64,000 nucleotides of DNA, from positions 1,944 through 65,943 of the forward strand of contig JBHHYE010000008.1 in the NCBI GenBank assembly GCA_046757405.1. The letters are read 5' to 3'. This document shows, one piece after another, positions 1,926 to 25,052 of the stretch. The translations under genes and the position numbers were made by a program. This DNA comes from Acidobacteriota bacterium (GTDB lineage Bacteria; Acidobacteriota; Polarisedimenticolia; SMYD01). Each line of letters begins with the position of its first letter. Position 1 is the stretch's first letter. The notes beneath the pieces were generated by a model. It worked only from the letters and a program-made list of their open reading frames with translations, searched no databases and was not told the DNA's origin.

Positions 1926-3221
1926 TCAAGATCGCGGCACCACCCGCGCCGGCCGATCCCCGAGCATCTCCGCCAGGGCCTCGGCCACCAGCCGGTTGGC
2001 CCGGGCCGTGGGATGCCCGTCGTCGCGCATGAAATCGGTCACCGGGATCCCTTCCCGGCGCGCCGCCTGGGTGAAGAGATCTCTGGTGTTGAGAACCGGG
2101 ACATGGCCCTGTTCCAGGACCCGGTCCAGGAGACGCTCCCGCCATCCGGCGGCCGGAGCGTCCAGCCGGGCCGCGAACGTCACGAACAGAAGCGGCAGGT
2201 CATGGTCGCGCGCCTCCTGGATGATGGCCTCCAGGAGCCGCCGGTTGAGGTCGATCTTCTCACGCCGGCGGTAGTCGAGCTCGTACATGTCGCCGCCGCC
2301 CGCCAGGATCCGCCAGCTCCGCAGCAGGTAAGCCAGCAGATAGCTCTTGAGGCGCGGCTGGTAGCGGGCCCGCCAGCGGGGAGAGTCTTCCTCCATGGGA
2401 GCCCCGTGCAGAACCAGCCGGCCGTCCTCGAGGACGAAGTACGGCTTGGGGCCGGTCCGGAAGGTCAGGACACTGCGGTCCAGGTCGGTGGCCATCACCC
2501 CGATGATGACGGTTGGTTTCTTGAATCGCGCGTGGGACAGCTTGAAACGCAGGTAGATCTGCCCCAGGCCGAACCCTCCCACGCCGTAGTTGAAGACCTG
2601 GAGGTCCGGCAGCAACCGGTCCAGGATCTGCGGGATGCGCGATTCCATCGGCACGGCGGATCCCGCCACGAACGAATCGCCGTAGAAGAGAACCGCTTGG
2701 GCGCCGGGATCGTACCGGTTCGGGACCGCGGCGGTGATCCCCAGGGGATTGTCCGCGGTTTCCGGTGGAGCCCAGCCCAGCATCGGATGGAAGCGCCCCA
2801 CCACGTTGTCTGATTGCTCCGGAAGCCATTTCTGGTGCAGGCGGAAATAGTCGCCGTCGGACAGGTAGTCGGCGTACAGGCCGGGCTGGCGGACCTTGGG
2901 CATCCCCAGGGCGATGCCGGCCCGGAGCCCCGCCTCGGCCAGGACCGGCGTGATGATGACGATGCTGGCCGCCATCAGGTTCAGGTTGGCCATGGCCTCG
3001 CGGCGGCGGAAGCGCAGGGTCACCAGTCCCCAGCCGGCCAGGAGCAAGCCGGCGCCCAGGAGGAGGCGCCGGCCCAGGGCGCCCCAGATCCGGTGCTCCG
3101 GAGCGATGAGTTGATGGATCAGGGGATCGCTGGCGGCCAGGAGCAGGCCAACCAGGAGATAAACGACGCCCAGCCCGGTCAGGACCTTGAGGCGGAGGGG
3201 CGGGGGAGACGGCGTCATCAT
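1926..3221 (-). CDS. SGNH/GDSL-family hydrolase, membrane-anchored (candidate polysaccharide O-acetyl esterase/transferase)
   Basis: 431-aa ORF with N-terminal hydrophobic segments. GDSL block I is FYGDSFVAG, block II-like is NYGVGG, and a C-terminal DDGHP supplies the catalytic Asp/His. It lies 10 nt downstream of the Wzx stop on the same strand. Confidence 0.7.
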   Translation of the reverse strand: MMTPSPPPLRLKVLTGLGVVYLLVGLLLAASDPLIHQLIAPEHRIWGALGRRLLLGAGLLLAGWGLVTLRFRRREAMANLNLMAASIVIITPVLAEAGLRAGIALGMPKVRQPGLYADYLSDGDYFRLHQKWLPEQSDNVVGRFHPMLGWAPPETADNPLGITAAVPNRYDPGAQAVLFYGDSFVAGSAVPMESRIPQILDRLLPDLQVFNYGVGGFGLGQIYLRFKLSHARFKKPTVIIGVMATDLDRSVLTFRTGPKPYFVLEDGRLVLHGAPMEEDSPRWRARYQPRLKSYLLAYLLRSWRILAGGGDMYELDYRRREKIDLNRRLLEAIIQEARDHDLPLLFVTFAARLDAPAAGWRERLLDRVLEQGHVPVLNTRDLFTQAARREGIPVTDFMRDDGHPTARANRLVAEALAEMLGDRPARVVPRS

Positions 3222-4707: not shown

Positions 4708-4868
4708 GGGCTTCCCCCGCCGGCCGCCCTCCTCCGGCCCATCCGGGGGGGGCGCGGGCGTGCTACTCCTGTGCCCGGCACAGTTTACAGGGTTTGACCC
4801 GGCGGACACCCTTGAAATGGTCCGGTTTGAGGGTATATATACGTGCGTCCATCCAGGGGGAATTCAAC

Positions 4869-5849
<981 letters not shown>

Positions 5850-5862
5850 CGGGAGGTTCCCT

Positions 5863-7677
5863 TTGCGAGCACTCGTCTCGTTCTTGGTGGCGCTGGGCGC
5901 TGCCTCCGCCCTGACGCCGCTGGTCATGGTGATGGCGCGCCGGAATGGGCTGGTCTCCCGTCCCCAGCCGGACCGCTGGCATTCCCGGGCGACGCCCCTC
6001 CTGGGAGGGGTGGCCATCTTTCTCTCCTTCATCTTCACGGCCGTCTTTCTGACTCCCTTCCATTCTCCTTCCCTTCGCCTGGGGTTCGCGGGAGTGCTCA
6101 TCGGCTCCACCGTCATGTTCTTCCTCGGGTTGCTGGACGATTTCATGCACCTGGGGGCGGCCACCAAGCTCATCGGCCAGGTGGTGGCGGCCTGTATCCT
6201 GGTTTATTGCGGCGTGTATTTCGATATTCTCGGCCGGCCCTTGCTGACCATTCCCTTGACCATCTTGTGGGTGGTGGGAATCACCAATGCCTTCAACCTC
6301 CTGGACAACATGGACGGCCTGGCATCGGGGATCGCAGCCATCTGCGCGCTCACCATCTTTGCCCTCAACCAGGTGCTGGGCATCGACCCCAGCCTCGGAC
6401 TGGTGGCGCTGAGCTTCGCGGGAGCCCTCCTGGGATTCCTGATCTTCAATTTTAACCCAGCCCGTATCTTCATGGGGGACAGCGGCTCGATGATGATCGG
6501 CTTCACGCTGGCCGGCCTCTCCATCGCCGGCACGTGGCATCAGGCTTCCAACGTTTTTCTCCTGCTCCTGGTCCCGGTCCTGATTCTCGGGGTGCCCATT
6601 TTCGATACGACCTTCGTCACGGTCACGCGGCACCTGCGCGGCCAGTCGATTGCCGTGGGGGGGCGGGACCACACATCCCACCGGCTCGTGGGGCTGGGGT
6701 TGAGCGAGAGACAGGCTGTCCTGATTCTCTACGGCATTTCCCTGGCGTTCGCGGTGATTGCGGTCCTGGCGTTGCGTTACAATGTCTTCATCGCCGGCAT
6801 CCTGGTGATCCTGCTGGCCACCGTCGCCCTGATCTTCGGGATGTTCCTGGGGCAATCCAGGCTCTCTCAAGAGGTGGCGCCTGCCGCGGCCGGGCCGGAG
6901 GGGAACGGGAAGGACGCCAGGCGCGGGTTCGTCCTGAACACCCTGGTGATGCACAAGCGCCGGATGGCGGAGGTCCTGATCGACCTGTGCCTGTTCGGGG
7001 TCGCCTTCGTGGCCGCCTATCTTCTGAGGTTTGAGGGCGCCATGCTTCCGCAAACAGAGCGCCTTCTTCTCTTTGCCCTGCCGATCGTCGTTCCGATCAA
7101 GCTGATCACCTTCTGGTCCTTCGGCCTCTACCGGCGGGTCTGGGATTTCATGGGGATCCACGACCTGGTGGTCATCACCAAGGCCGTCTTGACGTCCAGC
7201 CTGATCTGCATCATGGTCCTCTGGGGCCTGACCCGCCTGGAGACGTTCTCCCGCGCGGCCTTCCTGATGGACGGCATTCTTCTCCTCCTGCTCACCGCAG
7301 GGAGCCGCATCCTGTATCGTGTGTTCCAGGAGTCGTTTTTGGAGGAGTGTCCGGAAGGGAAACGGCTCCTCATCGTCGGGGCCGGGCAGGCGGGGGCGCT
7401 GGCCCTGCGCGAGATCCGCCGGAACCCGGCGCTGGGTTACCAGACGGTCGGTTTCCTGGATGATGATCCGGACAAGTGGGGCCGGAGGATCCAGGGTGCC
7501 CGCATCCTGGGAGGGCGCGACATGATCGCCAATCTCTCGTCCGAAGGGATCGACGAGATTCTGATCGCGATTCCCTCCCTTCCCCAGGACCAGCAGGCGG
7601 CCCTCGCTCAACTCTGTCGCGCCACCGGCAAGACCACGCGGATCATGCAGCGGGTCAGCAGCACCTTCCTTCATTGA
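5863..7677 (+). CDS. wecA: WecA/WbpL-family polyprenyl-phosphate HexNAc-1-phosphate transferase fused to a C-terminal TM + CoA_binding_3-like Rossmann domain
   Basis: MraY/WecA motifs NAFNLLDNMDGLASG and GDSGSMMIGF sit in the first ~350 aa. The extra ~240 aa carry TM helices then LLIVGAGQAGALALREIRRNPALGYQTVGFLDDDPDKWGRRIQGARILGG, which resembles the N-terminal NAD/CoA-binding-like domain of WbpM/CapD/WbaP-type proteins. Confidence 0.75.
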   Translation: MRALVSFLVALGAASALTPLVMVMARRNGLVSRPQPDRWHSRATPLLGGVAIFLSFIFTAVFLTPFHSPSLRLGFAGVLIGSTVMFFLGLLDDFMHLGAATKLIGQVVAACILVYCGVYFDILGRPLLTIPLTILWVVGITNAFNLLDNMDGLASGIAAICALTIFALNQVLGIDPSLGLVALSFAGALLGFLIFNFNPARIFMGDSGSMMIGFTLAGLSIAGTWHQASNVFLLLLVPVLILGVPIFDTTFVTVTRHLRGQSIAVGGRDHTSHRLVGLGLSERQAVLILYGISLAFAVIAVLALRYNVFIAGILVILLATVALIFGMFLGQSRLSQEVAPAAAGPEGNGKDARRGFVLNTLVMHKRRMAEVLIDLCLFGVAFVAAYLLRFEGAMLPQTERLLLFALPIVVPIKLITFWSFGLYRRVWDFMGIHDLVVITKAVLTSSLICIMVLWGLTRLETFSRAAFLMDGILLLLLTAGSRILYRVFQESFLEECPEGKRLLIVGAGQAGALALREIRRNPALGYQTVGFLDDDPDKWGRRIQGARILGGRDMIANLSSEGIDEILIAIPSLPQDQQAALAQLCRATGKTTRIMQRVSSTFLH

Positions 7678-9029
7678 TGGGCCGGACAGGCAAGTTGGCC
7701 CTCCTCCTGCTGGGCGGAGTTCTGGCAGCCGGCCAGGGGCTGATCTTCGCCCAGGGCGCGGACCAGGGGATCCCCCTGGGGAAGGGGATCTTCTACCCGG
7801 CCATCGCCATCGAGGGGGCCAGCGATGACAACCTGTTCCAGCAAGAGGATGACCGGATCTCGGTGAACTCCACGGCCATCGGCCCCGATCTGGAATGGCA
7901 TCTGCCGCTTTCCCGCAGCCTGCTCACCCTCATCTACAAGCCCCGCCTGCGTCGGTACGAGAATAACGTCATTCCCTCCACCACGTCGCACCGGTTCGAC
8001 GGCGAGTTTACCTTGGAGCTGCCCAGCGACACCCTCTTCACCGTCAAGGACAGTTTCGAGCGCGGAAACCTGGAGATCCGGGAGTTCACCGGGGGGGAGC
8101 CGACCTTCGGCGGCGACCGGTTCACGCGCAACGTCTACCAGGCCGGTTTCGAGATGCCGATCGGCCCGCGGCAGAAGGTGGAGATCGGGCTGTTCGGGGG
8201 GTCGACTCGGTTCGACGAGCTAGAGTCCGCCTCCTTCATCGACCTCTCGGACCAGGGTGTCCTGGCGAGCTGGTCCATCTCGCTGACCACGGAGCTGGAC
8301 TACCGGGTCGAGGCCCGGGGCTCCCGGGTGCGCGAGGATCGTCCCCCGGTGCGATTCCTCGATTTCCAGTCGCAGATGCCCATCCTGCTGCAAGATCTGG
8401 TGGCCGATCAGTTCGACCAGCGATCGATCCGGTCGGGTCTCGAGGGGCGCATCGGAAAGGTCCTGGAGACCCGCACCTTCCTGGGGTTCACCATCCAGGA
8501 TTTTGAGGATTCGGCGCAATCCGATTACCGGGGTCCGACCCTGGAGAGTGAGTGGAGACTGCGCCTGACATCCTCCCTGGGTGTTCGTGTGCTCGCCCGC
8601 CGCCAGCCGTTCGCTTCCGCCTTCAACGTCGCCAACTTCTTCGTCGCGGAGGACGCCAGCGCCTTCCTGGAGTGGCAGACGCCGCGCCGGCTGACAGTGA
8701 GCGTGGGGGGGAGCCGGCAGAAGAACAGCTACAAGGACCCCATCCAGACCAACCTGGACGGGAGCACCGCGACCGGGATCAACGCGGCGGGCGACGACAT
8801 TTTACCGGACCCTTCTACCGGTTTCGTAACCGGCGTCTTCCGCAAGGACCGCATCCGGCGGGTCGAGGGACGGGTGGAGTTCGCCTTCCGTCCGCACCGG
8901 CTCGCCGCCTTCGTGGAACTCATCGACGAGAGACGCGCCTCCAACATCACCTTCTCCCAGTTCAACCGCCGGGTGGTCCGTCTGGGGCTCCGTTTCGGGT
9001 GGTTCCGGTCGGGATCTGGTGGTATATAA
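7677..9029 (+). CDS. Outer-membrane beta-barrel protein (polysaccharide-export associated, uncharacterised)
   Basis: ATG 7677 overlaps the wecA stop (TGATG). Signal peptide MGRTGKLALLLLGGVLAAGQGLIFAQGA, alternating-hydrophobic beta-strand pattern, aromatic-rich C-terminal region (LGLRFGWF). It sits immediately upstream of wza. Confidence 0.55.
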   Translation: MGRTGKLALLLLGGVLAAGQGLIFAQGADQGIPLGKGIFYPAIAIEGASDDNLFQQEDDRISVNSTAIGPDLEWHLPLSRSLLTLIYKPRLRRYENNVIPSTTSHRFDGEFTLELPSDTLFTVKDSFERGNLEIREFTGGEPTFGGDRFTRNVYQAGFEMPIGPRQKVEIGLFGGSTRFDELESASFIDLSDQGVLASWSISLTTELDYRVEARGSRVREDRPPVRFLDFQSQMPILLQDLVADQFDQRSIRSGLEGRIGKVLETRTFLGFTIQDFEDSAQSDYRGPTLESEWRLRLTSSLGVRVLARRQPFASAFNVANFFVAEDASAFLEWQTPRRLTVSVGGSRQKNSYKDPIQTNLDGSTATGINAAGDDILPDPSTGFVTGVFRKDRIRRVEGRVEFAFRPHRLAAFVELIDERRASNITFSQFNRRVVRLGLRFGWFRSGSGGI

Positions 9030-9062: not shown

Positions 9063-10214
9063 ATGACTCTTGGCAGGATGTGCCTGGTGGTGGCCACCGT
9101 TGCTGTCTGGGCGGGCGGGCCGGTCCCGGCCTGGGCGGGCCCGGGCGAAGACCAGGGCGCCGTGCCGGCCAGCCCGGTACTCCAGGTGTCGCACCATGCG
9201 GAGGGGGATCGGCAGGTGATCGAGATCCGCGGGCCCGGAGCCGGGCGGCACACGCTCGAGCGGCTCGGGAATGGCACGTTCGCCCTGCGCTTCGAGCGCG
9301 CGCGGTTGCCGGATCAGGCTCGGGCGGCCGTGGCTCCGTTGCGGTTCGGCACGGGGGATCCCCAGAGCCTGATCATTCCCGCCGGCCTGCGCCTGAGTAG
9401 CCTCCAGTCGGAGCCTTCCCTTCTGAGACTTGTGCTGGATCCCCTGACCGGCCCGGCCCCCGGGGAATACCGGCTCGGAGTGGGCGACAAGGTCCGCCTG
9501 AACATCTACGGAGATGACGAGTTCAAGAACAAGGAGATGCGCATCGTGGACGACGGCACCCTGTCCGTGCCTTATCTCGGCGCCGTCCAGATCGCGGGGC
9601 TCACTGTGACCGAGGCCGCCGCGGAGATTTCCCGGCGTCTCTCCGCCGGTTACCTGGTGGAGCCCAAGGTGGGCCTGGAGGTGGTGGAGTACCAGAGCCA
9701 GTGGGTCAACGTGTCAGGGCAGGTGGCGCGGCCCGGACGATACGTTCTCGAAGGCACGACCCGGCTCATGGACATCATCGCCCGCGCCGGAGGTCTGCGC
9801 AACGAAGCCGGCAACGAGATCCGGATCACTCGCCGGGAGACCGCGGGAGCCGGCCACCGGGTGATAGTCTTTGACCGAAACTCCCTGTACCAGGCGGACG
9901 GGCCGCATGAGAACCCGGTCCTGGAGAGCGGTGATACCATCACCGTTTCGCCGGAGGAATACTTCTTCATCAAGGGAGAGGTTCGTTCTCCCGGCCGTTA
10001 TCCTCTGGGAGCCCATACGACCATTCTCACGGCGATCTCCCTGGCCGGCGGGTTCGAGCAGTATGCCAACCAGAAGAAGATCGAGGTTCTGCGCAAGCAG
10101 GGAGACGAAACCATTCGCCTGGTGATCAACGTGGAGCGGATCGAGAACAGGAAAGACGATGATGTGCCGCTGTTGCCTGGAGACATCATCAATGTCAAGA
10201 CCCGCTTCCTCTGA
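9063..10214 (+). CDS. wza: Polysaccharide export protein Wza-like (Poly_export + SLBB domains) with N-terminal ~100-aa extension
   Basis: Signal peptide present. The core GDKVRLNIYGDDEF...LSVPYLGAVQIAGLTVTEAAAEISRRL...GQVARPGRYVL...LPGDIINV is typical of Wza/KpsD-like exporters. An unusual N-terminal region lies between the signal peptide and the Poly_export domain. Confidence 0.8.
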   Translation: MTLGRMCLVVATVAVWAGGPVPAWAGPGEDQGAVPASPVLQVSHHAEGDRQVIEIRGPGAGRHTLERLGNGTFALRFERARLPDQARAAVAPLRFGTGDPQSLIIPAGLRLSSLQSEPSLLRLVLDPLTGPAPGEYRLGVGDKVRLNIYGDDEFKNKEMRIVDDGTLSVPYLGAVQIAGLTVTEAAAEISRRLSAGYLVEPKVGLEVVEYQSQWVNVSGQVARPGRYVLEGTTRLMDIIARAGGLRNEAGNEIRITRRETAGAGHRVIVFDRNSLYQADGPHENPVLESGDTITVSPEEYFFIKGEVRSPGRYPLGAHTTILTAISLAGGFEQYANQKKIEVLRKQGDETIRLVINVERIENRKDDDVPLLPGDIINVKTRFL

Positions 10215-10232
10215 GGGAGCACGGAGTCCCGA

Positions 10233-12341
10233 ATGGAATTGACGAACGTGGCACAGAGTGATCGCCGGGAGGTGCACCTCCTCGAATACTGGCGGGTGAT
10301 CTGGTCGGGCAAGTGGACCATTGCCGCGGTCAGCGTGGTGGTCCTGGCGACGGTGGCCATCGCCACCTTTCTCCAGACTCCCGTCTACCGCGCCACGGTG
10401 CGGGTGGAGGTCTCCCCCCGCACCAAGAGTGTGGCTCCGGGGAGTGATTTCTCGCAGCTCGGGGCGGGCTGGGGCTGGCTCGCCGAGGAGCGGTACCTGA
10501 ACACCCAGCTCGAGATCCTCAAGAGCCGGGACCTGGCGGCGCGGGTGCTCCAGGATCTCGGGCTCGATCAGGTACCCGGCGCCCCCCGGGTCGGCGACCC
10601 GGTGGAAGCCCTGAGGAGCCGCATCGAGGTGGAGGCCATTCCGGACGCCAACATCCTGGAAATCAGCATGGAAGGAACCGATCCCGCGGAGATCCAGCGT
10701 CGTGTCAACACCCTGGCCCGAGTCTACGTGGACCGCAACGTGGAGATCGCGGTGGAGGCCACTTCCCGGACCCTGGACGAGCTTCTCCGCCAGATGCAGC
10801 CTCTGCGCGAAAAGATTCGCACCAGGGAGCACACCCTTCTCGCCATGGCCCGGGAGAAGAAGCTTTACATTCCCGAGAGCCAGACGACGACCATGGGCGA
10901 GCGGATCAGCCAGCTCCAGGCAGAGCTGACCAATGTCCAGATCGAACGCGGGAGGCTGGAGGCGGTCTTCCAGGAGATTTCCCGGCTGGAAAGCGAAGGG
11001 GGAGACTACCAGACCCTGCCCCAGGTGGCCGACGACGAGGCGGTCCAGGATCTCGATCGCCAGGCCAAGAGCCTGGAGAAGGACCTGGAGCGCATGTCGG
11101 TCTCCTATCTGGACAAGCATCCGAAGATGATCGAAGCGCGATCCCAGCTCGCGGAGATCCGGCGGAAGCTTGGACGGGAGATCGACCGGATCATTTCAAA
11201 GATCAAGGCCGAGCATTCCATCGCCCGGCAGAGGGAGCGCAACCTCGAGGAGCGTCTCACCCGGGCCAAGGAAGAATCTCTGGATCTGACCGTGGCCTCC
11301 ACCGACTACAAGATCCTCAAGTCGGAGATCCAGGAAGACAAGCGGATCTACGACCTGATTCTCTCCCGGATCAAGGAGATCGACCTGAATCAGGAAACCT
11401 TGAACAACAACATCAGGGTCCTCGATCAGGCGGTTCTGCCCACGGCCCCGGTGCGCCCCAGGAAGGCCCTCAATCTCCTGGCCGGCGGCCTCCTGGGGCT
11501 CCTCCTGGGCATGGGAACCGTGATCTTCATGGACTACCTGGACAACACCGTGAAATCGGCCGAGGATGTGGAACAGTACCTGGGGTTGCATATCCTGGCG
11601 GTGGTTCCCCGGAAGCGCAAGGACACCAGCAGCTCGGTGAAGGAGGCCTTCCAGACCCTGCGCACGTCGTTGCTGTTCTCCAGCAAGGCGCGCAGCCTGA
11701 ACACCTTGCTGGTCACCAGCGCCGGTCCCGGCGAGGGGAAAACCAGCACGGGGGTGGGCCTGGCCCGCAAGCTCGCCTCGGCCGGCGACCGGGTCATCCT
11801 CGTCGACGCGGATCTCCGCCGGCCCACGGTGCACACCCAGCTCGGCATCGAGAGGGGCGGCGGATTGACCAACTACCTGCTGTCCACCGAGGGAGGGCAG
11901 GCCTGGCTCCGGTACCTGAAGGAGATCCCGGCCGCACCCAACTTGAAGGCGATCACCTGCGGACCGATCCCCCCCAATCCGCCGGAGCTGTTCAGCACCG
12001 AGAAATTCATCGACCTGATGACCCAGTTGAAGAAAAACTTCGACTGGGTGGTCCTCGACTCTCCGCCGCTGGCGAGCCTCTCCGACTCGCTGGTTCTCGC
12101 ATCCCTGGTGGACATGGTCGCCCTGGTGATCAAGCACAACCAGAACGATCGGGATCTGATCAGACGATCCACGGTCAGCCTGAAAAAGATCAACGCCAAT
12201 ATCATCGGCGCGGTCCTCAACAATATCGACCTTTCCCGCAGCACCTACAAGGATTACTACTACGCCGGCTACTATTACTACGGCCGGGGCCGCGAGGAAG
12301 AAGACGTGGAAACGCCCGTGGAGGCGGGCGAGCGCGCGTGA
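10233..12341 (+). CDS. wzc: Polysaccharide co-polymerase / BY-tyrosine autokinase (Wzc-like)
   Basis: Wzz-type N-terminal region with two TM helices and a long coiled-coil periplasmic domain. The C-terminal P-loop kinase has Walker A SAGPGEGKTST, A' VILVDADLRRP and B VVLDSPP, ending in the Tyr cluster YKDYYYAGYYYYGRG. Confidence 0.85.
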   Translation: MELTNVAQSDRREVHLLEYWRVIWSGKWTIAAVSVVVLATVAIATFLQTPVYRATVRVEVSPRTKSVAPGSDFSQLGAGWGWLAEERYLNTQLEILKSRDLAARVLQDLGLDQVPGAPRVGDPVEALRSRIEVEAIPDANILEISMEGTDPAEIQRRVNTLARVYVDRNVEIAVEATSRTLDELLRQMQPLREKIRTREHTLLAMAREKKLYIPESQTTTMGERISQLQAELTNVQIERGRLEAVFQEISRLESEGGDYQTLPQVADDEAVQDLDRQAKSLEKDLERMSVSYLDKHPKMIEARSQLAEIRRKLGREIDRIISKIKAEHSIARQRERNLEERLTRAKEESLDLTVASTDYKILKSEIQEDKRIYDLILSRIKEIDLNQETLNNNIRVLDQAVLPTAPVRPRKALNLLAGGLLGLLLGMGTVIFMDYLDNTVKSAEDVEQYLGLHILAVVPRKRKDTSSSVKEAFQTLRTSLLFSSKARSLNTLLVTSAGPGEGKTSTGVGLARKLASAGDRVILVDADLRRPTVHTQLGIERGGGLTNYLLSTEGGQAWLRYLKEIPAAPNLKAITCGPIPPNPPELFSTEKFIDLMTQLKKNFDWVVLDSPPLASLSDSLVLASLVDMVALVIKHNQNDRDLIRRSTVSLKKINANIIGAVLNNIDLSRSTYKDYYYAGYYYYGRGREEEDVETPVEAGERA

Positions 12342-12769
12342 TCCCGGCGCCGGTGCGGTCGGTCCTGTGCCTGGCGGCCGCGGCCGCTCTTTCGTCCGGC
12401 TGTCAGAAGCCGGACCCCCTGGCCTGGAGTCTCGCCCAGCGCCGTCTGTACCAGGTGGCGGTGGTCACTTTCAGCCAGAGAGAGGGCGGGGATTACCTGG
12501 TGGAGCTGGAGGTCCGCACGCCGATGGGCGGGAAGCTGAAAACACTGACCGCCACGCTGCGCCAGCACGACGCGTCCCACGCCGTCCTGAGAGAAGACCG
12601 GGTGCCGCTGGATCTGACCCCCATGGATGCGACCGGGAGCTTGCGAGTCTATGCGCGGATTCCGGCCGCTAACGGGCCTGTGGATTCCCTGAGCGCCCTG
12701 GTCGAGCTCGATCCGCCGCGCTCCGACTACAATCAGTTTCCCGAGCTTGATGACCTGGTTGCTCATTAG
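12338..12769 (+). CDS. Hypothetical secreted protein / probable lipoprotein
   Basis: GTG start overlaps the wzc stop. Signal peptide with a Cys (LCLAAAAALSSGCQ). No recognisable domain. Confidence 0.5.
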   Translation: MIPAPVRSVLCLAAAAALSSGCQKPDPLAWSLAQRRLYQVAVVTFSQREGGDYLVELEVRTPMGGKLKTLTATLRQHDASHAVLREDRVPLDLTPMDATGSLRVYARIPAANGPVDSLSALVELDPPRSDYNQFPELDDLVAH

Positions 12770-12802
12770 CCCGGTGAAGTCGTAGGCGGGGCTCCCTTTT
12801 CC

Positions 12803-13468
12803 GTGGCTTCCGCTGCAGGACGCGCGTCAGGCCTTGGCGCACCGGTGATCTCCCTGGTCGCCGCCGGTTTCATCCGGCTGCTGAGATCCACCATGCGGCT
12901 GCGGCACCTGGGGCGCGAGGAGCTCGAGGAGCTGGAAGCGCAGGGCCGGGCCTGCATCCTCGCCTTCTGGCACGGGCGCTTTCTGATGATGCCGTATTGT
13001 TACCGGCGCGGGCGCATCACCATCTTGATCTCCCGGAACCGGGACGGGGAGCTGATTGCGCGCACCATGAGCTGGTTCGGTCATGACGCCACGCGGGGCT
13101 CGTCGTCCCGCGGCGGTGCGGCGGCGCTCAAGGAGGTGGTCAAGCGCCTCCGGGACGGCTGGGACGTGGCCTTCACACCGGACGGCCCCCGGGGACCCAG
13201 GTTCAGGGTTCAGCCGGGCGTCATCCAGGCGGCGCGGCTCAGCGGAGCCCCCATCATCCCCGTCGGCTTTTCGGCCCGGCCGGCCGTGAGCTTTCATTCG
13301 TGGGACCGGTTTCTCCTTCCCTTGCCGTTCTCGCGCGGGACCTTCTCCTACGGACGGTCGCTGGAGGTGCCACGCGATGCGGACGGGGCCCTCATGGAGC
13401 GGCTCCGGGTGGAGCTGGAGGCGCGCATGCGCGCTCTCAGCGGGCCCGCTGAAGGCTCCCCTGAATGA
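12803..13468 (+). CDS. DUF374-family lysophospholipid-acyltransferase-like protein
   Basis: ILAFWHGRFLMMPY...GELIARTMSWFGHDATRGSS.RGGAAALKE...DGPRGPRF.VQPG matches the DUF374/LPLAT-like family. Confidence 0.6.
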   Translation: MASAAGRASGLGAPVISLVAAGFIRLLRSTMRLRHLGREELEELEAQGRACILAFWHGRFLMMPYCYRRGRITILISRNRDGELIARTMSWFGHDATRGSSSRGGAAALKEVVKRLRDGWDVAFTPDGPRGPRFRVQPGVIQAARLSGAPIIPVGFSARPAVSFHSWDRFLLPLPFSRGTFSYGRSLEVPRDADGALMERLRVELEARMRALSGPAEGSPE

Positions 13469-18033: not shown

Positions 18034-19188
18034 CTACGCCCGCTCGTCCAGGGGCTGGAACCTCCTGTCATGTGGGCCCACGTATTCGCACCGGGGACGG
18101 ATCAGGCGGTTGTCGGCGAGCTGCTCCATCACGTGGCTGGACCAGCCGGCGATCCGCGAGCAGGCGAAGACGGCCGGGAAAATGCGCGGCGGGATCCCCA
18201 GGGAGCGGTACGCGGACGCCGAATAGAAATCCACGTTGGGGTAGAGACCCTTCTCCTGCATCATCACCTCCCCCATGGCCGCCGACATGTCGAACCAGCG
18301 GCTGTCTCCGGCATTCCGGCCCAGGGCCTCGGCCATCTTCTTGAGGTGCACCGCCCGGGGATCCATGGTGCGGTAGACCCGGTGTCCGAAACCCATCACC
18401 CTCTCCTTGCGGCGGAGCTTTTCCTTGACCCAGGCCGGGACCCGTTCCACCGTGCCGATCTCCTCCAGGGCTTGCATCACGGCTCGGTTGGCGCCGCCGT
18501 GCAGAGGTCCCTTGAGAGTGGCAATGGCGGCCACCGTGGCGGAGTGCATGTCGGCAAGCGTCGAGGCGGCCACCCGCGCCGCGAACGTCGAAGCGTTGAA
18601 ACCGTGCTCCCCATGCAATACCAGCGCCAGATCTAAGGCTTCCACGGCCGTTCGAGACGGTTCCTCGCCCCCGAGCATGGCCAGGAAGCTGGCGGCCTGC
18701 CCGTGGCGCGGGTCCGGCGGCACGGGCTCCAGGCCCTGGGAAAGCCGTGTGTGCGCCGCGAGGATGGTGCCCATCTGCGCGGTCAGCCGGATGGCCTTGC
18801 GGTGATTCGCCTCCGGTGAGGATCGGGCGGTATCGGGGTCGAAGATCGAGGCGAGGGAGACGGCGCTTCGCAAGCTCTCCATGGCGCCGGCCGACTTCGG
18901 GAGAGAGCGCAGCATGGCCATGACGGGTGCGGCAAGCGGACGACCGGCCGCCAGGGCGTCCCGGAGCTGATCCAGCTCCTGGCGGTTGGGCAGCTCTCCC
19001 GTCCAGAGGAGGTGTGCGGTTTCCTCGAAGCTGGCCCGGCCGGCCAGCTCATGGATGTTGTAGCCGCGATAGGCCAGGATTCCCTCGGCTCCGTCGATGA
19101 AGCACCGGGAACTGGTGGTGATGACGACCCCGGCGAGACCGGCGGCGGTGTCGGGCGGGCCACTGGGAGGGGGCGGTGTCGTGCTCAT
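18034..19188 (-). CDS. Citrate synthase family (citrate / 2-methylcitrate synthase, ~380-aa type)
   Basis: Citrate-synthase signatures GFGHRVYRTMDPRA and GYNIHELA, with catalytic His/Asp context and the expected length. Confidence 0.8.
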   Translation of the reverse strand: MSTTPPPPSGPPDTAAGLAGVVITTSSRCFIDGAEGILAYRGYNIHELAGRASFEETAHLLWTGELPNRQELDQLRDALAAGRPLAAPVMAMLRSLPKSAGAMESLRSAVSLASIFDPDTARSSPEANHRKAIRLTAQMGTILAAHTRLSQGLEPVPPDPRHGQAASFLAMLGGEEPSRTAVEALDLALVLHGEHGFNASTFAARVAASTLADMHSATVAAIATLKGPLHGGANRAVMQALEEIGTVERVPAWVKEKLRRKERVMGFGHRVYRTMDPRAVHLKKMAEALGRNAGDSRWFDMSAAMGEVMMQEKGLYPNVDFYSASAYRSLGIPPRIFPAVFACSRIAGWSSHVMEQLADNRLIRPRCEYVGPHDRRFQPLDERA

Positions 19189-21908
19189 GATCCATCTTTT
19201 ACCACACGTGGCGCGAGACGGCGGCGCATCTGCTCCAGGAGCGAGAGAGCGTCCAGCGGCCTCAGAGCCTCCGGGTGGATGGAGCGCAGCTGCTCCAGGA
19301 TTTCGATTTCCGCGGGCGTCCGTTCCGGGTGCCGGGGTTCGCGCCCGCGCCGCGCCTCCGCCTGCTCCTGCACGAGAGCGGCGGCGCGCCCTCCCAGGTG
19401 CGGCGCCCGGGGACGCGGAGCAAACAGTCCCATCTGAAAGCGGTTCTTGGCGTGGCGCGCCAGCCGCGGGCGCCCATCCCGGCCGACGGCCTTGGCCTCC
19501 AGGCTGGCGAGGATCTCCCGGGCCCGGCCCACCACCTCGGGCGGGACGCCGGCCAGGGCGGCCACCTGGATGCCGTACGACTGATCGGCCGCTCCCGGCT
19601 CCAGCCGGTGCAGGAAGATGATCCGCCCGTCGTGTTCCCGGGCGGTGATGCGGTGATTGGTCACGCGCGGCAGAACCGTGGCCAGCTCGGTCAATTCGTG
19701 ATAGTGAGTGGCGAAGAGGGTTCGCGCCGCCACCGCCTCGCGCTCGTGAAGTTGTTCCACCACCGCCCAGGCGATGGAGAGGCCGTCAAAGGTTGCCGTG
19801 CCCCGGCCGATCTCGTCGAGGAGAACCAAGCTGCGGGGCGTGGCATGGTGCAGGATATTGGCCGTCTCTGTCATCTCCACCATGAAGGTGGACTGACCCT
19901 GGGCCAGGTCGTCGGACGCGCCCACCCGGCAGAAGATGCGGTCGGCGACGCCGATGCGCGCCGCCTTGGCCGGTACGAACGACCCCGCCTGCGCCAGGAG
20001 GACCATGAGGCCGGTTTGCCGGAGCAGGGTTGACTTGCCGCCCATGTTCGGTCCCGTGATGATCTGGATCTGGGAGTCGATCGCGTTCAGGTGAACATCG
20101 TTCGGCACGAACCGGTCCGATCCCACGGCAGCTTCCACCACCGGGTGGCGGCCCGCCGTGATCCGGATGGTGTCGCCGTCATCCACCTGGGGCCGGCACC
20201 ATCCGCTTCGAGACGCCACTTCCGCCAGGGTGGCGGCGACGTCCAGCTCGGCCAGCCGGGAAGCCGTCGTCCGGATCCGTCCGGCATGCTCCAGGACCTG
20301 CTGGCGCAGGGACTCGAAGAGTCTGGCCTCCAGGGCCAGACTCTGTTCCTGGGCCGAAAGGATCTTCTCCTCCATGGCCTTGAGCTCCGGCGTGGCGTAC
20401 CGCTCGGCGCTGGTCAGGGTCTGCTTGCGGATGTAGTCGCCGGGGATCTTGGCAGCATGGGTCTTGCTCGCCTCGATGAAGTAGCCGAACACCCGGTTAT
20501 AGCCCACCTTCAGCGAGCCAATGCCCGTTCGCCGCCGTTCCCGCTCCTCCAAGGCGGTCATGAACTCCTTTCCGCTGCGGGATATCTTGCGGAGCTCGTC
20601 CAGGCCGGGGTCAAAACCGCCCCGGATCAGGCCTCCTTCACGGATTCCGGCAGGGGGGGCCTCCACCAGGGCCCGTGATGTGAGGTCGCTGACCTCGGGC
20701 ACCGGGTCCAGGCTCTCCAGGAGCTCCCGCAGGGGCCGGGAGGATACCTCCCGGTGCACGAGGACCAGCGGTGGGGTGCAGGCCAGGGAAGCTCCCAGGC
20801 CCTGGAGATCGCGCGGACCCGCCGTGCCCAGGGTCAGCCGTCCCAGAAGCCGCTCCAGGTCGGCCACCGGCGACATCAGGCCCCTGATGCGGGCCCGGAG
20901 CTGGCCATGCTCCTCGAGGTCGGCCACGGCGGCCAGGCGCCGGCGGATACGCTCCGGATCCCGGAGCGGATGGAGGAGGCGTTCCTTCAGGAGCCGGCCG
21001 CCCATGCGGGTGACCGTGTGGTCTATCAATCCCAGCAAGGAACCGCGGCGGGTACCGTCGCGCTGGGTCCGCAGGATCTCCAGGTTCGCCAGCGTGGTGG
21101 AATCCAGGATGAGATGGGCGTCTTCCTGCAGGTGTGTGATCCGGTCGATGTGCTTGAGATCGGTTTTCTGGGTCTCCTGGAGGTAGGCGAGCAGGGCACC
21201 GGCGGCGCCGAGACCCAGGGTCAGTGTCTCGACACCGAACCCTGCGAGATGGGCGGTGCCAAACTGTTCCTGGAGAATCTCGCGGGCCGGGTCGGGCGCA
21301 AACCGCCAGTCCTCCAGGCGAGTGACAGAAACGCCGGCCAGCCCGCCGGAAAGCGCAACCTCGGTCTGTTCATCCAGAAGGATTTCGCGGCAGTTGAACC
21401 GGGACAGAAGATCGGTGCTTCGGGCAAGCGCGGCCTCTCCATGGAACTGGGCGAGACGGAAGTCGCCGGTGGAGAGATCCACCCAGGCCACTCCCGCCCC
21501 ATGGTCGCCGGGGTTGAGCGCACCCAGGGAACGGGCCTCGCCGGACTGGCTGTGCTCGCTCTCCGTGCAGGTTCCCGGGGTCACCACCCGGACCACGTCC
21601 CGGCGCACCAGACCCTTGGCGCATGAGGGGTCCTCCAGTTGCTCGCAGATGGCCACCTTGAACCCGGCATCCGTCAGCTTGGCGATGTAGCCGTCCACGG
21701 AGTGGTGGGGCACGCCGCACATGGGAGCTTCCGAGCGGGTCCCCTTGCCGCGCTTGGTCAAGGTGATCTCGAGCGTCTGCGCGGCGGACAGGGCGTCGTC
21801 GTAAAACATCTCGTAGAAATCGCCCATCCGGAACAAGAGAATGGCATCGTGGTAGCGCGACTTGATGTCGCGGTATTGCCTGAACATGGGCGTGACTTGG
21901 GACGACAT
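19185..21908 (-). CDS. mutS: DNA mismatch repair protein MutS
   Basis: 907 aa. N-terminal mismatch-binding MFRQYRDIKSRYHDAILLFRMGDFYEMF and C-terminal ABC ATPase GPNMGGKSTLLRQTGL...DEIGRGTATFDG. Confidence 0.95.
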   Translation of the reverse strand: MSSQVTPMFRQYRDIKSRYHDAILLFRMGDFYEMFYDDALSAAQTLEITLTKRGKGTRSEAPMCGVPHHSVDGYIAKLTDAGFKVAICEQLEDPSCAKGLVRRDVVRVVTPGTCTESEHSQSGEARSLGALNPGDHGAGVAWVDLSTGDFRLAQFHGEAALARSTDLLSRFNCREILLDEQTEVALSGGLAGVSVTRLEDWRFAPDPAREILQEQFGTAHLAGFGVETLTLGLGAAGALLAYLQETQKTDLKHIDRITHLQEDAHLILDSTTLANLEILRTQRDGTRRGSLLGLIDHTVTRMGGRLLKERLLHPLRDPERIRRRLAAVADLEEHGQLRARIRGLMSPVADLERLLGRLTLGTAGPRDLQGLGASLACTPPLVLVHREVSSRPLRELLESLDPVPEVSDLTSRALVEAPPAGIREGGLIRGGFDPGLDELRKISRSGKEFMTALEERERRRTGIGSLKVGYNRVFGYFIEASKTHAAKIPGDYIRKQTLTSAERYATPELKAMEEKILSAQEQSLALEARLFESLRQQVLEHAGRIRTTASRLAELDVAATLAEVASRSGWCRPQVDDGDTIRITAGRHPVVEAAVGSDRFVPNDVHLNAIDSQIQIITGPNMGGKSTLLRQTGLMVLLAQAGSFVPAKAARIGVADRIFCRVGASDDLAQGQSTFMVEMTETANILHHATPRSLVLLDEIGRGTATFDGLSIAWAVVEQLHEREAVAARTLFATHYHELTELATVLPRVTNHRITAREHDGRIIFLHRLEPGAADQSYGIQVAALAGVPPEVVGRAREILASLEAKAVGRDGRPRLARHAKNRFQMGLFAPRPRAPHLGGRAAALVQEQAEARRGREPRHPERTPAEIEILEQLRSIHPEALRPLDALSLLEQMRRRLAPRVVKDGS

Positions 21909-22021
21909 GAGAAACCGGGGATCGCGCCGGCACCGCCGTGCAGACGCCGACGCGTGAAAACCTCAGTCTACCACAGGCATCGCTTGACTTTTGCCCGCGG
22001 GCGCGGTATCAACCGCCGGTG

Positions 22022-22402
22022 ATGATCGAGGATGAACCGGACATCCCTTCCCCGGCCGGAACCGGCGAGCCACTCACGGATGAAGATCGAGTCCTCCTGG
22101 TTTTTTCGTATCTGGGACCGCTGGCCTTGGTCGCCTTTCTGGCGGCCAGGCGGGACTACGTCCGGTGGCACGCCCGGCAGGGGTTGGTGTTCTTCCTCGT
22201 GGCCTTCGGTGTGATTCTCGCAACGAGCACCCTGGAAGCGATCGCGGGCTCGATCCACTGGTTCCTGGGGCAGACCACCGCCATGTTCAATTCCATGATT
22301 TACCTCTGCCTGTTTGGAATCGCCTTGCTGTCCATGGTGAAGGCGCTCAAGGGTGAACGCTGGCGTCTTCCCTTCCTGCACGAACTGGCGGATCGGATCT
22401 AG
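22022..22402 (+). CDS. DUF4870-family small membrane protein
   Basis: LLVFSYLGPLALVAFLAARRDYVRWHARQGLVFFLV matches the DUF4870 pattern. Start chosen at ATG 22022 (track ORF starts at 21938). A TTGACT-N17-TATCAA sigma70-like element lies at 21984-22012. Confidence 0.55.
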   Translation: MIEDEPDIPSPAGTGEPLTDEDRVLLVFSYLGPLALVAFLAARRDYVRWHARQGLVFFLVAFGVILATSTLEAIAGSIHWFLGQTTAMFNSMIYLCLFGIALLSMVKALKGERWRLPFLHELADRI

Positions 22403-23730
22403 CGCTCGCCGTCTCCGGAGGTTTTCTGCCGGGCGGCTCGTCTCTCGCGCCGGGCTTTTTTCCGCGTCTGGATGACCCTCTTCCGTTCCCCATCCTCCGC
22501 GCTCCCAGCGGCAGTGGGGGAGGCGGCGGTCGATGCGTCGAGGAATCGCATCATGGGGAGTTTCCAGGTACGCAGGGCCGATTGCAAGCCGTTGGTGAAC
22601 GCGTAATCCCGGATGGGGTGGCCCTGGTCGATATACGCTCCGGCCACCCGGGCCAGGCGGAACTTGAGATCGCGCAACGTTTTCATCTGGATGCGTTTCG
22701 CGCTTGCTTGTTTCTTTTTTCTGGGAAGAAAGCCCCGGGCCGCCGCCTCGGGCGGCAATTCCTTGGCGATGGCGGTCATCTGAGCGGAAATCTCCCGGAG
22801 TTTCTTTTCCAGATCGGCGCGGGAGAGGGAGCTCACGTCCTCCAGCGGATGCGAGGGGTCCAGAAGCAGGTCCTTCTGCGTCAGCGTCCTCATGATGAAC
22901 TCGGCGTAGATGGCTTCCGTGGAGCGGGCCGGATCCTCCGTACGGAGGAGATGCCACTGGTTGGCTGCTTCTTTGTAATCGCCCTGGCGGTAAAGGATGC
23001 GTGCATAAAGGAGACGGGCGGCGGGCTGGGGCTGATCGGGCTGAAGGGACAGGACTTGCTCGAGGGCCTTGCGGCCCTCCGCGAGATGGTTCGCTTCCAG
23101 ATCGGCCCGGGCCACCTCCATCAGGGAACGAGCCAGGTAACGGGTATTGGGGTGTTCCTCGGCGCCCAGCCGCGCGGCGGCGTGTGAAAAGAATGAAATC
23201 TGAAGCGCGCGGTCGCCGGCGTCTGTCGCCATCCGGCCCAGCCGGAAGAGATCCTCGCTGGAGAAATTTTCTTCTTGGCCGAACTGGCCCCCTCGATACC
23301 GGTTGAGGGCTTCCTGGGCGGTGCGCCGGGCCGTGGCCGTATCGCCCACCGTGGTCGAGGCGGCCACCATGTAGTAGTAGTCCGCCAGCTCCGCTTTCGC
23401 GGGCTGAGCCTGCAGGCGCTGCCGCAGGGCTCCGATGGCCTCGTTCATGGTCTGGCGCACGAGGGCATCCGGTTTCCCCGTGGTCTGCTGGCAGAAAGCA
23501 GCTTGGTAGAGCACGCGGCCGTCCCGAACCCCGCCGGCCAGAGCCTTGTTGAATTCCACCAGGGCCTCCGCGTACTTCTCCTGGGCGTACAGTGACTGGG
23601 CCTTCCGGGCGGCGGCCTTGGCCGCGTCGGGCGGGGCGGCGACGGCCAGCTGCAGGGCCGCCACGGCCAGAACGATCGGCCCTAGGAGCGTGGCCCGCCG
23701 CGGGATGAAGGCTGGCCGCGCCTCATCCAC
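22399..23730 (-). CDS. TPR-repeat protein, secreted, with Lys/Arg-rich C-terminal tail
   Basis: Signal peptide, multiple TPR-like helical repeats, and a C-terminal KKARRERRAARQK basic tail. Confidence 0.6.
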   Translation of the reverse strand: MDEARPAFIPRRATLLGPIVLAVAALQLAVAAPPDAAKAAARKAQSLYAQEKYAEALVEFNKALAGGVRDGRVLYQAAFCQQTTGKPDALVRQTMNEAIGALRQRLQAQPAKAELADYYYMVAASTTVGDTATARRTAQEALNRYRGGQFGQEENFSSEDLFRLGRMATDAGDRALQISFFSHAAARLGAEEHPNTRYLARSLMEVARADLEANHLAEGRKALEQVLSLQPDQPQPAARLLYARILYRQGDYKEAANQWHLLRTEDPARSTEAIYAEFIMRTLTQKDLLLDPSHPLEDVSSLSRADLEKKLREISAQMTAIAKELPPEAAARGFLPRKKKQASAKRIQMKTLRDLKFRLARVAGAYIDQGHPIRDYAFTNGLQSALRTWKLPMMRFLDASTAASPTAAGSAEDGERKRVIQTRKKARRERRAARQKTSGDGER

Positions 23731-24946
23731 GGCTGGCGGCTTGCCGGATGGAGGAGAGGAAGTCCTTGTTGGAGGCGGTCTTGGACAGACGGTCGAGAAG
23801 CTTCTCCATGGCTGAGAGGGGATCCATCTTGGCGAAGGCTCGGCGCAGCAGGTGAATCGCCTGCATCTCGGTGGGATCGTACAGCTTCTCTTCCTTCCGG
23901 GTTCCCGAGCGGCTGATGTCGATGGCCGGGAATAGGCGGCGCTCGGCCAGCCGGCGGTCGAGGATGAGCTCCATGTTGCCGGTCCCCTTGAATTCCTCGA
24001 AGATCACGTCGTCCATGCGGCTTCCGGTGTCCACGAGAACCGTGCCCAGAATGGTCAGGCTTCCCCCTTCTTCGATGTTGCGGGCGGCGCCGAAAATGCG
24101 CTTGGGATGTTGGAGGGCGGTGGACTCCACGCCGCCCGAGAGGATCTTGCCGGAGCCTCGGACCTGATTGTTGTAGGCGCGGCCCAGGCGGGTGAGCGAA
24201 TCGAGAAGAACGACGACATCATGGCCGTATTCAGCCCAACGCTTGGCTTTTTCCAGCGCCATCTCGGCGACCTTGACATGCTCCGCCGTATGCCCGTCCG
24301 AAGAGGAAGCCACCACCTCACCCTGCACCGAGCGGCGCATGTCGGTGACTTCTTCCGGCCTTTCATCCACGAGCAGGATCATCTGTTGCACGTCGGGATA
24401 GTTGGTCGAGATGGCGAGGGAAATCGCCTTGAGGAGCATGGTCTTGCCGGCCTTGGGAGGCGAGACGATGAGGCCCCGTTGCCCGCGCCCCACGGGGGTG
24501 ATGAGATCCACCGCCCGGGTGGAGAGCTCCTCGGGGGTGGTTTCGAGGATGAACCGGCTCTCCGGATCCAGGCTGGTGAGCTGGCGGAACTCGGGGATCT
24601 CCAGATGTTTTTCCGGAGCATTTCCGTTGATCTGGTCGATCTCGTGGAGGCGTAAGGAGCCATTGGAACGCCCGCCTCCCGGCGCGGCCTTGCCTTCGAT
24701 CCAGGCGCCCTCGCGAACGTGCCACTTGCGCAACAGTTGCTGGCCGATGAACGGATCGTTCTTGGAAGCCAGGTAGCTGGACTGGCCGGATCGCAGGAAG
24801 CCGCTGCCGTCCTTCATGATCTCCACGGCGCCGGTGACCTGGACCAGTTCGTCCGGGTTGACGGGCCTCGGCGGACCGGACGGCCTCATTCTGCGCCGCG
24901 GATGGTCCCCACGGTTACGCCGGTGGTAATTTCTTCTTCGCCCCAT
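23723..24946 (-). CDS. rho: Transcription termination factor Rho
   Basis: OB-fold RNP motif [14 protein letters not shown], Walker [16 protein letters not shown], and Q/R loops. Start set at ATG 24946 ([13 protein letters not shown]...). The track ORF reaches 25075, which would overlap the divergent gene. Confidence 0.9.
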
Positions 24947-25052
24947 TTTTTCCAGGAAAGCTCCCGACGATCCCGTGGGACGACGTCCCACACCTTCATC
25001 AACAGTTTGACCAGCGCCGGAAGCATTCGTAATATAGCATCCTCGCCGGCAC

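Follow-up and report, generated by a model that had tools for sequence, protein, structure and literature searches.

Why would an enzyme of the kind that begins surface-polysaccharide synthesis carry, at its C-terminal end, a membrane module of the kind known from nucleotide-sugar dehydratases? The question is raised by one open reading frame (ORF) in a 64,000-nucleotide stretch of DNA from an Acidobacteriota bacterium (lineage Polarisedimenticolia, SMYD01; GenBank assembly GCA_046757405.1, contig JBHHYE010000008.1, positions 1,944 to 65,943 of the forward strand), hereafter the window. The ORF encodes 604 amino acids (aa) that join a polytopic phosphoglycosyltransferase (PGT) to a four-transmembrane-helix (4TMH) bundle and a PF13727 domain (Table 1). 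It is through the initiating transferases that scarce undecaprenyl phosphate is apportioned between envelope pathways, and to our knowledge their regulation is largely unknown. The explanation that we find best, and hold with moderate confidence, is that of an active PGT bearing a dehydratase-derived module that is kept by selection and is probably regulatory.

Two protein families in one chain

The ORF runs uninterrupted from a TTG start at 5863 to a TGA stop at 7675-7677, and its product matches ACE5HD_03530, annotated as a "hypothetical protein" in an Acidobacteriota metagenome-assembled genome (MAG), with 100% identity. A 610-aa ORF on the opposite strand (5842..7674) was discarded as a high-GC shadow ORF. 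Pfam placed Glycos_transf_4 (PF00953) at residues 76-223 (E = 5e-34; 118 bits vs a cutoff of 27), and both hydropathy and AlphaFold2 put 11 hydrophobic helices within residues 1-330. Foldseek matched this half to MraY (6oz6, 8cxr and others) and human GPT with E ~1e-9 and target-normalised TM-scores of 0.70-0.75. In an alignment with E. coli WecA and the WbpL-like proteins of P. aeruginosa and Ampullimonas, D92/D93, D148/D151, D206 and H270 fell on their E. coli WecA counterparts; these residues, and likewise the aspartate of the FMGD motif, are invariant in 78 homologs. The protein shares with E. coli WecA, MraY and human GPT the 11-transmembrane (TM) fold and every catalytic Asp/His motif, and differs from them by 255 added residues. 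Residues 20-324 matched the NCBIfam WecA model TIGR02380 with 107.8 bits, below its equivalog cutoff of 326. By its sequence this half falls within the WecA family taken broadly and is no WecA ortholog, and nothing in that sequence argues against an active transferase.

The rest of the chain was examined in an AlphaFold2 model of the whole protein, built from a 78-sequence alignment (mean predicted local distance difference test score, pLDDT, 85.3; predicted TM-score 0.78), and in a separate model of the module alone (pLDDT 89.4). Hydropathy and the model agree on 11 + 4 TM helices. Pfam detected CoA_binding_3 (PF13727) at residues 438-585 (E = 1.6e-12; 48.3 bits vs a cutoff of 25) and found neither Polysacc_synt_2 (PF02719) nor Bac_transf (PF02397) in the ORF; the next gene begins at the transferase stop. 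No NCBIfam model reached its cutoff with the 604-aa protein, and residues 372-600 matched only positions 1-230 of the WcaJ/EPS/WbaP models, their N-terminal non-catalytic part. Since the WecA C-terminus is cytoplasmic and four more helices follow, the Rossmann-like domain should also be cytoplasmic. In Foldseek searches the best solved structure for the module was that of liponanoparticle-embedded WbaP (8t53_A), which aligned with E = 1.9e-6 along 263 columns that cover helices and domain, the root-mean-square deviation (rmsd, 12.8 Å) being high because the sub-domains are oriented differently; the Rossmann part superposed on the WbpM-like fragment 3nkl_B with an rmsd of 2.0 Å over 102 columns. 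In the model, strands β1-β5 are followed by a short helix and the stop codon, so that the β-hairpin which in WbaP follows the central sheet and builds the domain-swapped dimer is predicted to be absent.

Down to 42% identity, 16 module residues are invariant in the 78 homologs: D374, F417, Y423, W427, R464 and F467 in the 4TMH bundle, and G506, A507, G508, G511, R516, E517, D533, D534, K538 and G550 in the Rossmann domain. In a module alignment that is mostly dehydratase-linked, R389, F417, W427, R464, D470, GAGxxG, R516/E517, D533/D534 and G550 are conserved as well. This pattern indicates that the module is under selection and, because it is conserved in a large family spanning many phyla, that it is functional.

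The architecture is widespread in uncultured bacteria and metagenomes and detectable by standard hidden Markov models (HMMs). PF00953 and PF13727 were both present in all 120 best listed database relatives, whose identities run from 100% down to 43% and whose lengths are almost all 585-625 aa. A scan of GTDB genomes, one per species, gave at least 32 loci with both parts, and among the matches listed a single in-frame ORF ended just after the module in 28 of 32. The hosts include, within Acidobacteriota, Pyrinomonadaceae, Blastocatellia and Terriglobales, and beyond them Omnitrophota, Desulfobacterales, Desulfovibrionaceae, Gaiellaceae and other Actinomycetota, Chloroflexia, Heliomicrobium and Salinivenus; the 28 single-ORF loci fall in Acidobacteriota, Omnitrophota, Desulfobacterota, Actinomycetota, Chloroflexota, Bacillota and other phyla. 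Publicly, the ~600-aa proteins are named "hypothetical protein", "glycosyl transferase" or plain WecA. Given that both parts come from known families and that their combination is common and within reach of standard HMMs, the protein itself is an unremarkable member of a family that already exists but is uncharacterised. One 928-aa relative (P0192) continues after the fused transferase and module into a ~330-aa C-terminal helical tail that resembles tetratricopeptide repeats (TPR) and is unrelated to dehydratases. The representative search also returned 34 "module-only" proteins. Of the two that were looked at, P0221 proved to be a fused gene with a broken call, and P0183 lies on a 1.5-kb contig and is uninformative; a stand-alone module protein is not claimed.

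We used several comparisons to classify the module. In pairwise scoring, the modules of Deinococcus, Leptospira and Ampullimonas dehydratases were closest (110-116 bits), within a range of 84-116 bits that also takes in Legionella and Priestia, and P. aeruginosa WbpM scored 48 bits; the best of seven large monotopic PGTs (Lg-PGTs) reached 33 bits, and E. coli WcaJ was not detected. Similarly, an HMM of the fused-family module gave 108-192 bits with dehydratase modules and 20-52 bits or no match with Lg-PGT modules. The best 60 rows of a tblastn search with the module against 72,556 plasmids were all WbpM/PglF-type "nucleoside-diphosphate sugar epimerase/dehydratase". An exhaustive HMMER search over 1.84 billion representatives returned 11,827 matches. 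Of the best 150, 74 had the order transferase-module, five or six transferase-module-dehydratase, about 20 module-dehydratase and three Bac_transf-module-dehydratase, the others being fragments. The Lg-PGT order, module then Bac_transf, did not occur among the longer proteins classified in those best 150 of 11,827. These results indicate, at the level of sequence, a module of the WbpM/PglF/CapD dehydratase type and not of the WbaP/WcaJ type.

Much of this agrees with an earlier sequence-only reading of the locus, which had placed WecA/WbpL motifs in the first ~350 residues (Pfam, fold and aligned catalytic residues concur), had described extra TM helices and a Rossmann domain behind them (four helices and the PF13727 match), had quoted two motifs that we located as GAGQAG (aa 506-511) and GFLDDDPDKWG (aa 530-540), and had seen no dehydratase or phosphotransferase domain. 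The domain HMM scan it proposed put Glycos_transf_4 and CoA_binding_3 both above their gathering scores, and the database survey found their combination to be common, of which that reading had been unaware. Its comparison of the module to WbpM, PglF and WbaP alike is narrowed, by pairwise and HMM scores, to the WbpM/PglF/CapD type rather than the WbaP type.

Possible roles of the module

The 604-aa product would be a 15-TM inner-membrane protein whose first 330 residues form an active polytopic PGT of the WecA/WbpL/TagO kind. This half would load undecaprenyl phosphate (Und-P) with a 2-acetamido-sugar-1-phosphate taken from a UDP-sugar and free UMP, a reaction that we infer with high confidence from family membership, and it would thereby prime a polysaccharide exported by the products of the translationally coupled EpsL-Wza-Wzc genes downstream. 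The last 255 residues would act as a membrane-anchor or regulatory module, one usually found at the N-terminal end of the UDP-GlcNAc 4,6-dehydratases WbpM/PglF/CapD. By analogy with the domain of unknown function (DUF) of WbaP, the module would most likely bind a uridine nucleotide or UDP-sugar, and it could then modulate the transferase and/or keep it in a dimer or pathway complex.

WecA-type enzymes release UMP, and MraY and GPT are dimers in published structures. Together with the evidence from the WbaP homolog, these properties lead us to favour a nucleotide-sensing and/or dimer-stabilising role, as a plausible but tentative proposal by analogy. WbaP provides the sole experimental clue to PF13727: its isolated DUF is stabilised by UMP, UDP and UTP, the enzyme is inhibited by UMP with a half-maximal inhibitory concentration of 4.1 μM, and the DUF gives most of the dimer interface (PMC10942596). 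CapD, a dehydratase with the module, is reportedly inhibited by UDP-MurNAc-pentapeptide and lipid II (PMC6441080).

M. xanthus EpsZ, whose dimerisation depends on a partner protein, likewise has no β-hairpin, and the absence of the hairpin here makes docking a serious rival, even if an improbable one. Having lost its covalently joined dehydratase, the module would in that case be a platform, not a sensor, that brings a soluble nucleotide-sugar enzyme to the membrane and channels the donor sugar to the transferase, and the candidate partner is an extended short-chain dehydrogenase/reductase (SDR) whose gene ends 13 bases before the transferase start. The best solved structure for this SDR is human UXS1 (4lk3; E = 5.7e-55), and it has the motifs STSEVYG, YACSK and NTVGPR; a correspondence with the 4-reductase WbpK/WbpV of P. 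aeruginosa was rejected, since it resembles UXS1 and matches the SDR of P. aeruginosa weakly, with 32 bits. In some 14 of the 32 listed loci, and also in L095 and L096, a related SDR gene directly precedes the fused PGT gene. SDR and transferase genes are tightly coupled or overlap. Between related loci the SDR is better conserved (52-70% identity) than the two halves of the transferase (40-48% and 28-43%; tblastn). In WbpM/PglF the same module anchors an SDR to the membrane, and one 816-aa protein (P0009) joins the C-terminal two-thirds of the SDR to the fused transferase. However, roughly every second related locus lacks an adjacent SDR, the adjacency is equally explained by a shared pathway function, and the joining stretch of P0009 looks out-of-frame and may come from a frameshifted or damaged gene call. 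Conservation of the UXS-like SDR hints, on sequence grounds, at an unusual donor such as a UDP-pentose or UDP-XylNAc; that the donor is the product of the UXS-like enzyme is speculative.

A non-functional leftover of a wbpL-wbpM fusion, tolerated since losing four TM helices would disturb membrane insertion, is what one might expect of a module that derives from a dehydratase whose catalytic domain is gone and that is less conserved than the transferase half. We regard this as quite improbable. The invariance of the 16 residues does not fit it, the invariant glycine-rich loop and acidic pair play no part in membrane insertion, length is constant in 28 species-level genomes of many phyla, and most invariant positions are also kept where the module joins a working dehydratase. 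A purely vestigial module is thus unlikely from its pattern of conservation. The sequence-only reading had set a regulatory or docking domain against a wbpL-wbpM remnant; the two do not exclude each other, and the evidence favours a remnant by descent that is nevertheless conserved.

Descent of the module

A different source for the module would be an Lg-PGT of the WbaP/WcaJ type, from which it would have been acquired by shuffling between kinds of initiating transferase. Residues 372-600 do align with the N-terminal 230 positions of the NCBIfam WcaJ, EPS and WbaP models (E = 9e-23 to 6e-13), and WbaP 8t53 is the best solved-structure match, results that may be biased in that NCBIfam has no dehydratase match in this region and the structural matches contain no full-length dehydratase chain. 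This origin is nonetheless very unlikely: the pairwise scores (48-116 bits for dehydratases vs at most 33) and the family HMM point the other way, no Lg-PGT was identified in the best 150 of 11,827 matches or the best 60 plasmid rows, and fusions that still hold the dehydratase linker and domain exist.

The gene pair from which such a chain could arise is found in P. aeruginosa, where wbpL and wbpM are adjacent O-antigen genes in the same transferase-then-module order (L094). WbpL is homologous to the N-terminal half of the window protein (31% identity), and the N-terminal 4TM and PF13727 part of WbpM-type proteins is homologous to the C-terminal half, with P. aeruginosa WbpM itself a rather distant relative. 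The two systems differ in that WbpL and WbpM are two polypeptides, whereas the window protein is one and lacks the ~350-aa SDR dehydratase domain. The same order occurs in the cultured betaproteobacterium Ampullimonas aquatilis LMG 28208 (NZ_CP183834.1; L037:9890-12916), in which a wbpL-like gene (9890-10963) and a wbpM-like gene (10967-12916) share one frame and are separated by just a stop codon and 3 nt. A tblastn impression that L037 is an intact triple fusion was rejected, the genes being two in-frame genes with a stop between them. One substitution would fuse such a pair, which makes the Ampullimonas genes a ready-made fusion precursor.

Fusions that retain the dehydratase domain are of two kinds. 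In PglF and WbpM, published work assigns catalytic roles to the T-D-K aspartate and the M-x3-K lysine. In the triple fusions P0267 and P0242 the motifs are intact (TGAGGSIG or TGAAGSIG, S(T/S)DKA, MGxTKR), and the dehydratase domain is 44-45% identical to that of WbpM. In P0132, P0051, P0123 and P0045 the last two of these motifs read SIEKA/STSKA/SSIKA/SSMKA and FALSKR/AVATRR/LGATRR/HGATRR, at 29-30% identity to the WbpM domain. These fusions, of about 930-975 aa, have lost the catalytic Asp, Met and Lys of what is now a pseudo-enzyme; with the Asp and Lys gone, their dehydratase domains are very likely inactive. The locus of P0051 (L097) has no upstream SDR. The window protein and its relatives end ~10 residues past the last strand, where the dehydratase linker would begin.

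In a tree of transferase domains that also holds 49 stand-alone WecA-like proteins, the intact fusions formed a clade of their own (97%) outside the family, and the remaining 109 fused sequences, decayed ones included, formed one clade with 93% bootstrap, separate from the 49. The decayed fusions clustered in this tree (100/93%) and also in the module tree (98/62%), which was computed by neighbour joining from the 250-aa module and Lg-PGT outgroups and of which only well-supported local groupings were used. In both trees they fall together with the 600-aa family. P0047 groups with the decayed clade, its apparent shortness being due to a contig end inside the dehydratase linker. The likeliest and simplest history that we infer is one wbpL-wbpM fusion, after which the dehydratase decayed and was deleted and the module was kept. 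Adjacent wbpL-wbpM-type genes would have fused through read-through; the dehydratase domain would first have lost its catalytic residues and then been deleted, and the module would have stayed on the transferase, kept by selection in a monophyletic family of many phyla.

A second kind of fusion was seen beside these. P0214 (940 aa), P0252 (846 aa) and P0226 (570 aa, partial) carry Bac_transf of the small monotopic PGT type, 4TMH/PF13727 and Polysacc_synt_2 in one chain. In such chains a PglC-like transferase is fused ahead of a PglF-like dehydratase, whose motifs are intact in P0214 and P0252. Fusion with a dehydratase of this type has thus occurred in each of the two PGT superfamilies.

The possibility that two genes were joined by an error of assembly or sequencing can be given practically no weight, for although the window derives from a MAG and a few relatives are broken (L027, L036, L041; P0221), the equivalent ORF is unbroken in 28 of the 32 independent genomes, hundreds of database proteins have the same length, GC content at third codon positions (GC3) is 0.85 in the first 1080 and in the last 735 bases, so that the coding signal is unchanged across the junction, and the topology is coherent, with four helices bringing the chain back to the cytoplasm after the cytoplasmic WecA end. 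The even GC3 and the intact ORFs of relatives likewise rule out the two genes joined by a frameshift that the earlier reading had considered; the ORF is single in the window and in those 28 loci.

Several points weigh against the explanation of an active PGT with a dehydratase-derived, regulatory module, in which the order of events, the catalytic activity, the substrate and the regulatory role are proposed. Deep bootstraps in the module tree are near 0 and its Lg-PGT outgroup is not monophyletic, so that the order of events (loss of the dehydratase, not its later gain in one clade) rests on parsimony and the decayed motifs. The score below the enterobacterial WecA equivalog cutoff means that GlcNAc-1-P specificity cannot be assumed, and without the β-hairpin the WbaP dimer mechanism is not directly transferable.

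Gene neighbourhood and meaning for the family

The fused gene sits in a + strand operon (Table 1). The TGATG overlap of its stop with the start of the EpsL-like gene suggests translational coupling; the ORF listing starts the latter at a GTG (7476) inside the transferase gene, and the ATG at 7677, with its signal peptide, is the likelier start. A 47% identical homolog in L095 has the same gene order, with Wzy_C, GT2 and modifying enzymes upstream, and in an Omnitrophota locus (L096) the SDR-transferase pair is followed by an O-antigen-ligase-like gene and two heptosyltransferases. No WbpM-type dehydratase or monotopic PGT was found within ±10 kb of the fused genes in the related loci listed, and no glycosyltransferase or flippase domain among the larger ORFs scanned up to 25 kb of the window. 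The operon context makes the protein a likely initiating enzyme of a Wzx/Wzy-type surface polysaccharide.

Two further genes lie near the locus both here and in L095, a DUF374 gene (12803-13468, +) and a GDSL-like lipase/acylhydrolase gene (1926-3221, -). In L095 they adjoin LpxB, which suggests assembly of a lipid A/lipopolysaccharide type rather than a free exopolysaccharide. Beyond the polysaccharide genes the window holds housekeeping genes (citrate synthase, MutS, a TPR protein and Rho; 18034-25075, -), so the polysaccharide cluster is short on that side.

Table 1. Position and basis of the features of the fused transferase gene and its operon in the window
Feature	Position	Strand	Basis or remark
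Extended SDR, UXS1 (UDP-glucuronate decarboxylase)-like	4794..5849	+	Pfam Epimerase/GDP_Man_Dehyd; 4lk3 structure match
GGGAGG, Shine-Dalgarno/ribosome-binding site, 6 nt 5' of TTG	5851..5856	+	Direct sequence reading
Fused transferase ORF, 604 aa (polytopic PGT + 4TMH + PF13727 domain)	5863..7677	+	ORF reading, Pfam, NCBIfam
Polytopic PGT domain, 11 TM, residues 1-330 (PF00953; WecA/WbpL/MraY superfamily)	5863..6852	+	Pfam, Foldseek, hydropathy, AlphaFold2
D92-D93 = E. coli WecA D90/D91, Mg2+/diphosphate-binding pair	6136..6141	+	Alignment; invariant in 78 homologs
N142-x2-N145-x2-D148-N149-x-D151-G152 motif; D148/D151 = WecA D156/D159	6286..6318	+	Alignment and conservation
D269-H270-T-S-H273 = WecA His motif (HIHH)	6667..6681	+	Alignment and conservation
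Cytoplasmic linker, residues 331-349, glycine/alanine-rich low-complexity AAAGPEGNGKDARR	6853..6909	+	pLDDT 49-50 (blocks 331-350)
4TMH bundle, residues 350-492	6910..7338	+	AlphaFold2 helices 350-389, 396-419, 432-457, 464-492
Cytoplasmic Rossmann-like PF13727 ("CoA_binding_3"/DUF) domain, residues 498-604, strands β1-β5	7354..7674	+	Pfam, AlphaFold2
GAGQAG (G506-G511), Rossmann glycine-rich loop; G506, A507, G508, G511 invariant	7378..7395	+	78-homolog alignment
D533-D534-D-P-D-K538 after strand β2; D533, D534, K538 invariant	7459..7476	+	78-homolog alignment
EpsL-like outer-membrane β-barrel, signal peptide MGRTGKLALLLLGGVLAAGQGLIFAQG	7677..9029	+	Start ATG overlaps transferase stop (TGATG, 7675-7679)
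Wza/EpsE-like polysaccharide export protein	9063..10214	+	
Wzc-like co-polymerase/tyrosine autokinase	10233..12341	+	

Among known systems, PglF (C. jejuni) and CapD (S. aureus) share the 4TMH and PF13727 module at their N-terminus, and differ in having an active Polysacc_synt_2 domain after it and no transferase before it. WbaP (Salmonella enterica, 8T53), WcaJ, CpsE and EpsZ are, like the window protein, initiating transferases with a 4TMH and PF13727 accessory module, for which regulation by UMP and a part in dimerisation have been proposed. Their catalytic domain is unrelated, with the monotopic Bac_transf fold in contrast to the polytopic PNPT fold, and their module is N-terminal, whereas that of the window protein is C-terminal and belongs to the dehydratase branch; of this group, M. 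xanthus EpsZ lacks the β-hairpin as the window module does. In a published superfamily comparison polytopic PGTs are tabulated as "PGT only" (Table 1 of PMC10942596), and the same paper calls the presence of the module in dehydratases "puzzling". We found no description of the PF00953 and PF13727 architecture in the searchable full-text literature, outside which most subscription journals lie, so that this absence is not proof. An accessory module on a polytopic PGT, the evidence for its dehydratase origin and the decayed intermediates are thus apparently undescribed.

The finding overturns nothing; its interest lies with those who study how glycoconjugates are initiated, and it offers a way into the PF13727 question. 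With this family the module is found on a third enzyme class, unrelated to the other two, which has retained it after loss of the dehydratase; this supports a module function independent of the catalytic partner. The family also has annotation value for ~600-aa proteins that now stand under generic names, and it offers a simple test system, in that assays for the enzyme are established and the C-terminal module can be cut off. Three unrelated folds that handle UDP-sugars, the SDR dehydratase, the monotopic PGT and the polytopic PGT, carry the 4TMH and PF13727 module, and it is conceivable, though we would not yet call it probable, that it serves as a portable control cassette, indifferent to the enzyme to which it is joined, for the earliest committed steps in making surface glycans. 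If so, the module outlived its original enzyme and would exert its effect directly on the transferase or on the common economy of Und-P and UMP, and the family would be a natural experiment on the function of PF13727.

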